26,414 bases of DNA. Origin: Escherichia coli (lineage in GTDB: Bacteria > Pseudomonadota > Gammaproteobacteria > Enterobacterales > Enterobacteriaceae). Of this stretch, positions 1-3,000 are shown piece by piece; the first letter of the stretch is position 1; each line of letters begins with the position of its first letter. The position numbers were made by a program. The stretch is from the NCBI RefSeq assembly GCF_003334815.1, contig NZ_QOWO01000047.1; one strand, 5' to 3'.

Positions 1-3000
1 TGCAGTTGCCATGTTTTACGGCAGTGAGAGCAGAGATAGCGCTGATGTCCGGCGGTGCTTTTGCCGTTACGCACCACTCCGTCAGTAGCTGAACAGGAGG
101 GACAGCTGATAGAAACAGAAGCCACTGGAGCACCTCAAAAACACCATCATACGCTAAATCAGTAAGTTGGCAGCATCACCGAAATTCAGTAGATTGACGC
201 TGGGTGTTTTGCTGGCACTAAGCGGTTCAGCGTCTGGTGCAAGTCTGGAAGTTGATAATGATCAGATTACCAATATTGATACTGATGTTGCTTATGATGC
301 CTACCTGGTTGGCTGGTATGGCACTGGAGTGCTTAATATTTTGGCTGGCGGTAATGCCTCCTTAACCACTATTACTACCAGCGTCATTGGCGCTAATGAG
401 GACTCAGAGGGCACCGTTAATGTTTTGGGTGGCACCTGGCGATTGTATGATAGCGGAAATAATGCAAGGCCTTTAAATGTGGGTCAATCCGGAACGGGGA
501 CGCTGAATATTAAACAGAAGGGTCACGTCGATGGAGGCTATTTAAGATTAGGTTCTTCGACAGGAGGCGTCGGGACGGTCAATGTTGAGGGAGAGGACTC
601 TGTTCTGACGACCGAATTATTCGAAATAGGTAGCTATGGCACAGGTTCATTAAATATTACGGATAAGGGTTACGTCACGAGTTCAATCGTCGCCATTTTA
701 GGCTATCAGGCGGGCAGTAATGGCCAGGTTGTCGTTGAAAAGGGTGGCGAGTGGCTAATAAAAAATAATGATTCCTCAATTGAATTTCAAATTGGTAATC
801 AAGGAACTGGGGAGGCGACTATTCGCGAGGGGGGGTTGGTTACGGCTGAAAATACGATTATCGGTGGCAATGCCACCGGTATCGGAACCCTGAATGTGCA
901 GGATCAAGACTCTGTCATCACGGTACGCAGACTCTATAATGGATATTTCGGTAATGGCACAGTCAATATTTCCAATAATGGACTGATTAATAACAAAGAA
1001 TATTCATTGGTGGGCGTTCAGGACGGTTCCCACGGTGTCGTCAACGTGACCGATAAAGGGCATTGGAATTTCCTCGGAACGGGCGAAGCTTTCCGCTATA
1101 TCTATATCGGTGATGCTGGCGACGGTGAACTTAATGTCTCGAGTGAAGGCAAAGTAGATTCGGGAATTATCACTGCGGGGATGAAAGAAACAGGCACAGG
1201 CAACATTACTGTTAAGGATAAGAACTCCGTTATCACTAATCTCGGAACTAATCTTGGTTATGACGGCCACGGCGAAATGAATATCAGTAATCAGGGGCTT
1301 GTTGTCAGCAACGGAGGAAGTTCACTCGGTTATGGAGAAACCGGCGTCGGGAATGTCAGCATCACCACGGGGGGAATGTGGGAGGTCAATAAGAATGTCT
1401 ATACCACCATTGGTGTTGCGGGCGTCGGAAACCTCAATATTAGCGATGGCGGTAAGTTCGTATCGCAAAATATTACTTTTTTGGGCGATAAAGCAAGCGG
1501 TATCGGCACACTGAACCTGATGGATGCGACATCATCGTTCGATACTGTGGGTATCAATGTCGGTAATTTTGGTAGCGGTATCGTAAATGTCAGTAATGGT
1601 GCCACCCTTAATTCAACGGGCTATGGATTTATCGGAGGAAATGCCTCCGGTAAGGGGATAGTTAATATTTCAACGGACAGTCTCTGGAATTTAAAGACAT
1701 CATCTACTAACGCACAATTGCTACAGGTCGGTGTATTAGGCACGGGTGAACTGAATATTACCACCGGAGGTATAGTTAAAGCGCGTGATACACAGATAGC
1801 TCTCAATGACAAAAGTAAGGGCGACGTGAGGGTGGATGGGCAGAACTCTCTTCTTGAAACATTCAATATGTACGTAGGGACATCTGGTACGGGTACGTTA
1901 ACCCTGACGAATAACGGTACGCTGAATGTCGAAGGTGGAGAAGTTTACTTAGGTGTTTTTGAGCCTGCTGTAGGAACGCTAAACATTGGTGCTGCTCACG
2001 GTGAGGCGGCGGCAGATGCCGGATTTATCACCAATGCGACGAAAGTGGAGTTTGGTCTTGGCGAAGGCGTTTTTGTCTTTAATCATACCAATAACAGTGA
2101 TGCCGGCTACCAGGTCGATATGCTGATTACAGGTGACGATAAAGACGGAAAAGTGATCCATGATGCAGGCCATACGGTGTTCAATGCAGGGAATACTTAT
2201 AGCGGTAAAACGCTGGTCAATGACGGCCTCCTGACCATTGCGTCTCATACGGCAGATGGGGTAACGGGCATGGGGTCGAGTGAAGTAACCATTGCAAACC
2301 CCGGTACGCTCGACATTCTCGCATCAACGAACAGTGCAGGAGATTACACGCTGACCAATGCGCTCAAAGGCGATGGCTTGATGCGAGTGCAGCTGTCATC
2401 CTCCGACAAGATGTTTGGCTTTACCCATGCAACAGGGACTGAATTCGCCGGTGTTGCCCAACTGAAAGACAGTACCTTCACTCTGGAACGCGACAACACC
2501 GCTGCGCTTACTCACGCGATGTTGCAGTCTGACAGTGAAAATACCACATCGGTAAAAGTTGGAGAGCAATCCATTGGTGGACTGGCCATGAATGGAGGTA
2601 CCATCATTTTCGATACGGATATTCCTGCTGCGACGCTCGCGGAGGGATATATCAGCGTCGATACGCTGGTTGTCGGCGCGGGTGACTACACCTGGAAAGG
2701 CCGTAACTATCAGGTAAACGGGACGGGCGACGTGCTTATCGACGTGCCTAAACCGTGGAATGATCCCATGGCGAATAACCCTCTGACGACGCTCAATTTG
2801 CTGGAACACGACGATAGCCATGTCGGCGTTCAACTGGTGAAGGCGCAAACGGTTATTGGGTCGGGTGGCTCATTAACGTTACGTGATTTACAGGGCGACG
2901 AGGTGGAAGCGGACAAAACGTTACACATTGCGCAAAACGGAACGGTGGTCGCCGAGGGTGATTATGGATTCCGCCTCACGACCGCACCAGGTAATGGTTT

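Follow-up and report, generated by a model that had tools for sequence, protein, structure and literature searches.

The sequence yneO (ydeK/ydeU) of Escherichia coli K-12, located between lsrK and hipB, has been listed as a putative autotransporter-encoding sequence (PMC7858067), and PGAP marks it as frameshifted, with the split lying near the boundary between the passenger and the beta-domain. A copy of this gene with a mobile element inside it is found in E. coli F404 (NZ_OY754364.1), where both ends of an IS1 are visible and are flanked by the duplication GATTGACGC at CDS nucleotides 137-145. IS1 carries an outward-facing -35 box in its terminal repeat, and hybrid promoters that combine this box with a -10-like hexamer of the flanking DNA at a spacing of 17 bp have been described for bla TEM-1 and for afaA in ST131 (PMC8764528; PMC9330008, citing Prentki et al. 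1986). The element also causes adjacent deletions and inversions, which leave a copy without direct repeats (PMC9330008, section 5.2.1). As for the N-terminal extension of the signal peptide (ESPR), engineered deletions have been made in EspP, Pet and Hbp, and autotransporters without ESPR are often still exported (PMC8151025).

The window, i.e. the whole stretch of 26,414 nucleotides of E. coli DNA analysed here (contig NZ_QOWO01000047.1), can be compared with each of these systems. Its gene order is autotransporter, hipBA, ydeTSRQ, ydeP, safA-ydeO, ydeNM, yddAB, pqqL and gadB, and beyond the IS1 the whole of it agrees at about 100% identity with the chromosomes of K-12-like E. coli. The interrupted gene is a type Va autotransporter gene adjoining lsrK, and it shares with yneO the PGAP family name, ECSE_1600 family autotransporter; we take this locus to be K-12 yneO/ydeK. 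In MG1655, however, IS1 is absent, and the frame is broken by a +1 change (G7 to G8) in a different G tract, at window 4009-4015. F404 has the same gene, the same orientation of IS1, an insertion in the same signal-peptide coding region and the same G7 frameshift as the window, whereas its IS1 lies 11 bp further downstream, implying that the F404 insertion was an independent event. The junction resembles the bla TEM-1 and afaA hybrid promoters in pairing the outward IS1 -35 box with a -10-like hexamer of the flank at 17 bp, and differs from them in that the candidate site lies within coding sequence. Finally, the open reading frame of the window is the equivalent of the ESPR-less EspP, Pet and Hbp constructs in that it retains the canonical signal peptide, although it arose by a natural accident, lacks a promoter and a ribosome-binding site, and has its beta-domain frameshifted away.

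An earlier reading of the sequence alone (the preliminary description) had assigned positions 1-180 to an IS1 terminus with its inverted repeat at 158-180 and the N-terminus of InsA encoded on the minus strand, and had the autotransporter coding sequence begin directly at 181. These assignments are all borne out by comparison with other genomes. Megablast with window 1-180 returned thousands of matches annotated as IS1 family transposase, and in most loci examined the segment differs at 1-4 positions from the left 180 nucleotides of the RefSeq copies so named. The terminal inverted repeat of about 23 bp that typifies IS1 is present at 158-180, one end of the element being visible, and the same 23-bp repeat bounds the complete IS1 copies that we mapped in other genomes. 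Just inside it, insA reads inwards from a GTG at 125 on the minus strand, with 41 codons in view. The insA promoter of IS1 lies partly inside the left repeat (IRL), which is where the consensus scan places an inward-facing site (Table 1). The element's own transcription is directed away from the autotransporter gene. From base 181 onward the match to the chromosomal ECSE_1600 family gene is about 100%, which sets the junction at 180/181.

Table 1. Coordinates of the features at the IS1 junction, in the autotransporter gene and at the end of the window
Feature	Positions	Strand	Basis
Left end of IS1, 180 of 768 bp visible; the element runs off the window start	1-180	-	1-4 mismatches to most annotated copies
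5' part of insA, GTG start at 125-123, 41 codons visible	1-125	-	Translation gives the InsA N-terminus
Inward-facing promoter-like site, partly within IRL, CTGCCA-16-TATGAT	146-173	-	Consensus scan; position of the insA promoter
IS1 left terminal inverted repeat (IRL), 23 bp	158-180	-	atcagtaagttggcagcatcacc is the exact reverse complement of GGTGATGCTGCCAACTTACTGAT
Junction-spanning promoter-like site: -35 TTGGCA (167-172, IRL), 17 bp, -10 TAGATT (190-195, gene)	167-195	+	Consensus scan, 9/12
Chimeric ORF: TTG and 4 IS1 codons, passenger codons 43-1281, 21 out-of-frame codons, stop	167-3964	+	ORF list, translation, NF011422
Predicted 9-bp target site GAAATTCAG; would be the right-hand copy	181-189	+	Empty-site allele GACAAC/GAAATTCAG/TAGATT
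Canonical signal peptide KFSRLTLGVLLALSGSASGA, codons 43-62; predicted cleavage before S63 (242)	182-241	+	PF13018 placement, hydrophobic core
G7 tract, G8 in the intact allele; -1 frameshift splitting passenger from beta-domain	3886-3892	+	Comparison with FDAARGOS_1337
Downstream ORF: autochaperone/linker and beta-barrel translocator; frame open from 3847	3925-5475	+	NF011422, TIGR01414
gadB, 320 nt, at the window end	26095-26414		

The comparison with an uninterrupted orthologue that the preliminary description had proposed was carried out with two genomes, E. coli ECKH-257 and FDAARGOS_1337, and alignment to either one puts window base 181 at the third position of codon 42 (CDS nucleotide 126). 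No difference separates ECKH-257 from window 181-5700 over 5,520 nt; having no IS1, it represents the empty-site allele. In FDAARGOS_1337 the gene is intact (5,421 nt, 1,806 aa) and matches NF011422, the NCBIfam model of the ECSE_1600 family, over its full length; over 5.5 kb the only real differences from the window are a SNP at window 1369 and a single missing G (1 indel). The 125 nucleotides of coding sequence that are absent from the window are supplied by ECKH-257 and encode MNRIYRVIWNCTLQVFQACSELTRRAGKTSTVNLRKSSGLTT. In the intact alleles they are preceded by a GGAG ribosome-binding site and then by a 530-bp intergenic region that is AT-rich (22-40% G+C), so that the start codon and the promoter do lie outside the window, as had been proposed.

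The first residues after the junction had been read as the core and cleavage site of a signal peptide, and the family models refine this reading. In the intact protein, residues 1-47 are recognised by the Pfam ESPR model PF13018; the residues that follow the junction therefore belong to the canonical N-H-C signal peptide that comes after the ESPR in an extended signal peptide. The ESPR extension itself (MNRIYRVIWN...) is incomplete in the window, residues 1-42 having been cut off by IS1 and residues 43 onward kept. The hydrophobic core LTLGVLLAL has a mean Kyte-Doolittle value of 2.66, and the small residues S and A occupy positions -3 and -1 of the predicted cleavage site, KFSRLTLGVLLALSGSASGA/SLEV, which on these grounds would be the point of processing. 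IS1 thus parts the ESPR extension, the start codon and the promoter from the canonical signal peptide.

The reading frame that spans the junction opens with a TTG codon. This TTG, at 167, belongs to the IS1 repeat, as the preliminary description had recognised; it is in frame with the autotransporter gene and is preceded by an in-frame TAA at 155-157, and no recognisable Shine-Dalgarno motif stands before it. The ORF is an accidental fusion of the gene to IS1 repeat sequence. It scores 2788 bits against NF011422 over profile positions 42-1281, above the curated whole-protein cut-off of 2335 bits, while the intact allele reaches 4178 bits over positions 1-1806. Annotation of 167-3964 as a TTG-start protein is not warranted.

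The end of this ORF at 3964, and the location of the beta-barrel in another frame, result from the change of G8 to G7 in the tract listed in Table 1. The downstream ORF matches NF011422 positions 1291-1806 and contains the TIGR01414 beta-barrel domain (E = 6.9e-122). In a type Va autotransporter a single polypeptide comprises passenger and beta-barrel; here the barrel domain is present in a different frame, and the window accordingly holds a pseudogene of the ECSE_1600 family. The G7 allele is also found in locus L005, in F404, in ECKH-257, in CUVET17-972 and in an independent Logan contig. Among complete E. coli genomes, about 4,165 of which carry the segment used for counting, an 81-mer with G7 has exact matches in 277 records and the corresponding 82-mer with G8 in 2,342 records. 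Two close relatives share G7 without this IS1, namely ECKH-257, which has no IS in its autotransporter gene, and CUVET17-972, the best-scoring relative, which has an IS2 about 1,550 nt into the gene (positions 2729-3957 of its extracted locus). The most parsimonious order would thus place the frameshift before the insertion, and the frameshift is probably the older of the two lesions, implying that IS1 was not the first inactivator of the gene. Since G7 occurs in the more distant F404 as well, and hence in at least two different backgrounds, it may also recur by slippage. A second poly-G tract, at window 4009-4015 and about 120 nt downstream of the first, reads G7 in the window, as it does in the intact allele; the passenger/beta-domain boundary thus contains two slippage-prone G tracts.

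To place the insertion among others at this locus, we searched 5,426 complete genomes with chimeric queries composed of IS1 and the 2,055-nt 5' region. IS1 was detected in or adjoining the 2-kb 5' region in about 89 of them, 49 times in the orientation of the window and 40 times in the opposite one, and an orientation bias was rejected on these numbers. Eighteen of the IS1-bearing genomes, partly chosen for proximity to the window's site, were mapped over the lsrK-autotransporter region (L001-L003 and L006-L019). Every one of the 18 contains a complete 768-bp IS1, flanked by a duplication of 9 bp in 17 and of 8 bp in one, and all 18 copies occupy different sites, between -533 and +1826 from the ATG and in both orientations. 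The first base of the duplication lies upstream of the ATG at -533, -522, -472, -336, -321, -208, -101 and -10, and within the gene at 137, 164, 185, 309, 538, 726, 901, 1478 and 1818. Those at 137, 164 and 185 are close to the site in the window, in the part of the gene that encodes the signal peptide or immediately beyond it, and in strain QL57EC the IS1 (duplication at -10 to -2) separates the ribosome-binding site from the ATG. In another genome, strain Z142-1 (match H132), an IS5-like element, ISEc68, underlies the match to the 5' region.

It is tempting to suppose that the 5' end of the autotransporter gene and its upstream region are a preferred landing zone for IS1, or that loss of the gene is under recurrent selection. 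At least four IS1 sites, that of the window among them, lie in one 68-bp stretch (nt 126-193) of the signal-peptide coding region, and such a pattern could arise from a target preference for AT-rich, probably nucleoid-protein-bound DNA or from selection against a large surface adhesin. However, about 10.7 chromosomal IS1 copies per genome of about 5 Mb and a detection interval of 2.4-5.9 kb give a rough random expectation of 27-67 genomes, and the observed 89 of 5,426 is not clearly above it. Because the count does not clearly exceed the expectation and the mapped sample was partly picked near the window's site, we make no claim of a hotspot and regard both the landing zone and recurrent selection as doubtful.

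Our preferred reading, which we hold to be very probable, is a simple insertion of IS1 at codon 42/43 of an already-dead chromosomal autotransporter gene, with loss of its expression. An IS1 copy, its transposase genes facing away from the gene, would have transposed into codon 42/43 of the ECSE_1600-family gene in a K-12-like E. coli and come to lie between the ESPR extension at the N-terminus and the canonical N-H-C signal peptide, so that the native promoter, the ribosome-binding site, the ATG and codons 1-42 are uncoupled from what follows in the gene. By that time the gene would most likely have been a pseudogene, a one-base loss in the G8 tract having uncoupled the 1,280-residue passenger from its translocator; the frameshift would have come first, and independent IS insertions would have followed in the dead gene. 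From the arrangement of the window and its relatives we infer that the IS1 is complete with a 9-bp duplication, that the frameshift preceded it and that there is no functional expression. On this reading the left junction is predicted to be CTGGACTGACAACGAAATTCAG/GGTAATGACTCCAAC, with GACAACGAAATTCAG joined directly to GGTAATGACTCC, the right end of IS1, and GAAATTCAG is predicted to be duplicated. That all 18 mapped copies are complete and have 8-9-bp duplications is a strong reason to take simple insertion as the starting assumption for the window.

The same observation bears on the main alternative, in which an IS1-mediated deletion or inversion, either through intramolecular replicative transposition or through recombination between two IS1 copies, removed or relocated the 125 nt and the upstream region and left no duplication. 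Such rearrangements are known for IS1 (PMC9330008), and a single junction is visible in the window. The far side predicted by simple insertion is moreover not on record: the N-terminal peptide expected from a duplication of 9, 8 or 10 bp had no exact match, and metagenome scans returned 0 matches for the predicted left junction, with 8-10-bp duplications allowed, and 0 for the known right junction. The peptide in question would be encoded by a 51-aa ORF, however, whose absence from a gene-call index is weak evidence. Since simple insertion accounts for every one of the 18 copies examined at the locus, we judge a deletion or inversion distinctly unlikely. An artefact of assembly, in which the junction is a chimera formed at a collapsed repeat, might be suspected because the window starts in a multicopy repeat, where mis-joins occur. 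We reject it as having a vanishingly small likelihood: exactly the same 1,265-aa chimeric ORF is present in a Logan contig that was assembled independently (SRR3823859) and occurs in 6 samples, and the join coincides with the final base of the IS1 inverted repeat, which is what a genuine transposition would produce. The Logan contig also breaks within IS1, starting 30 nt inside the element. As for the window itself, it is bounded by repeats, IS1 at its start and gadB, which has the paralogue gadA, at its end, and is therefore probably an entire short-read contig.

A further possibility is that the junction created a new expression unit, in which the -35 box of IRL and the -10 hexamer of the gene drive an ESPR-less protein that could become functional if the G tract slipped back to G8. 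The promoter-like site matches the consensus at 9 of 12 positions with a 17-bp spacing, IS1 is on record as forming hybrid promoters (PMC8764528, PMC9330008), export usually requires no more of an extended signal peptide than its C-terminal part (PMC8151025), and the ORF from TTG 167 keeps the complete N-H-C signal peptide. However, a match to consensus is not evidence of function, and a transcript from this site would begin at about 202-204, downstream of both TTG 167 and TTG 194, the next in-frame start being TTG 209, inside the hydrophobic core. Its position within coding sequence, past every start codon that could serve, means that this site would be unable to restore the protein. With the beta-barrel also removed by the G7 frameshift and with no Shine-Dalgarno motif ahead of TTG 167, rescue of expression by this promoter and this codon was judged unlikely, and the expression unit as a whole appears highly improbable. 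Functional expression of the disrupted gene is, judging from its sequence, very unlikely.

In simple insertion, then, we have a textbook case of insertional disruption by IS1 and of ordinary pseudogene decay, in a gene whose K-12 copy was already recognised as a pseudogene. The present analysis adds to the preliminary description the anatomy of the ESPR, the frameshift that probably preceded the IS1, the empty-site allele and the recurrence of IS insertions at the locus. Beyond annotation its importance is small, the window holding a doubly disrupted autotransporter pseudogene, and the locus illustrates how a dispensable adhesin-type gene decays repeatedly, through poly-G slippage and through insertions of IS1, IS2 and IS5-family elements. 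The exact IS1-gene junction, in one piece, is absent from the 5,426 complete E. coli genomes and present in 6 SRA-run assemblies; being so rare, the junction (IRL joined to CDS nucleotide 126) could serve as a lineage marker.

Two further observations concern the region downstream of the autotransporter gene. The usher gene ydeT, at window 8139-9287, is an N-terminally truncated pseudogene when compared with the annotation of FDAARGOS_1337, and it is likewise truncated in related strains. Upstream of it, at about window 7600-7810, lies a fragment of a small helix-turn-helix gene, which is found in related strains as well.
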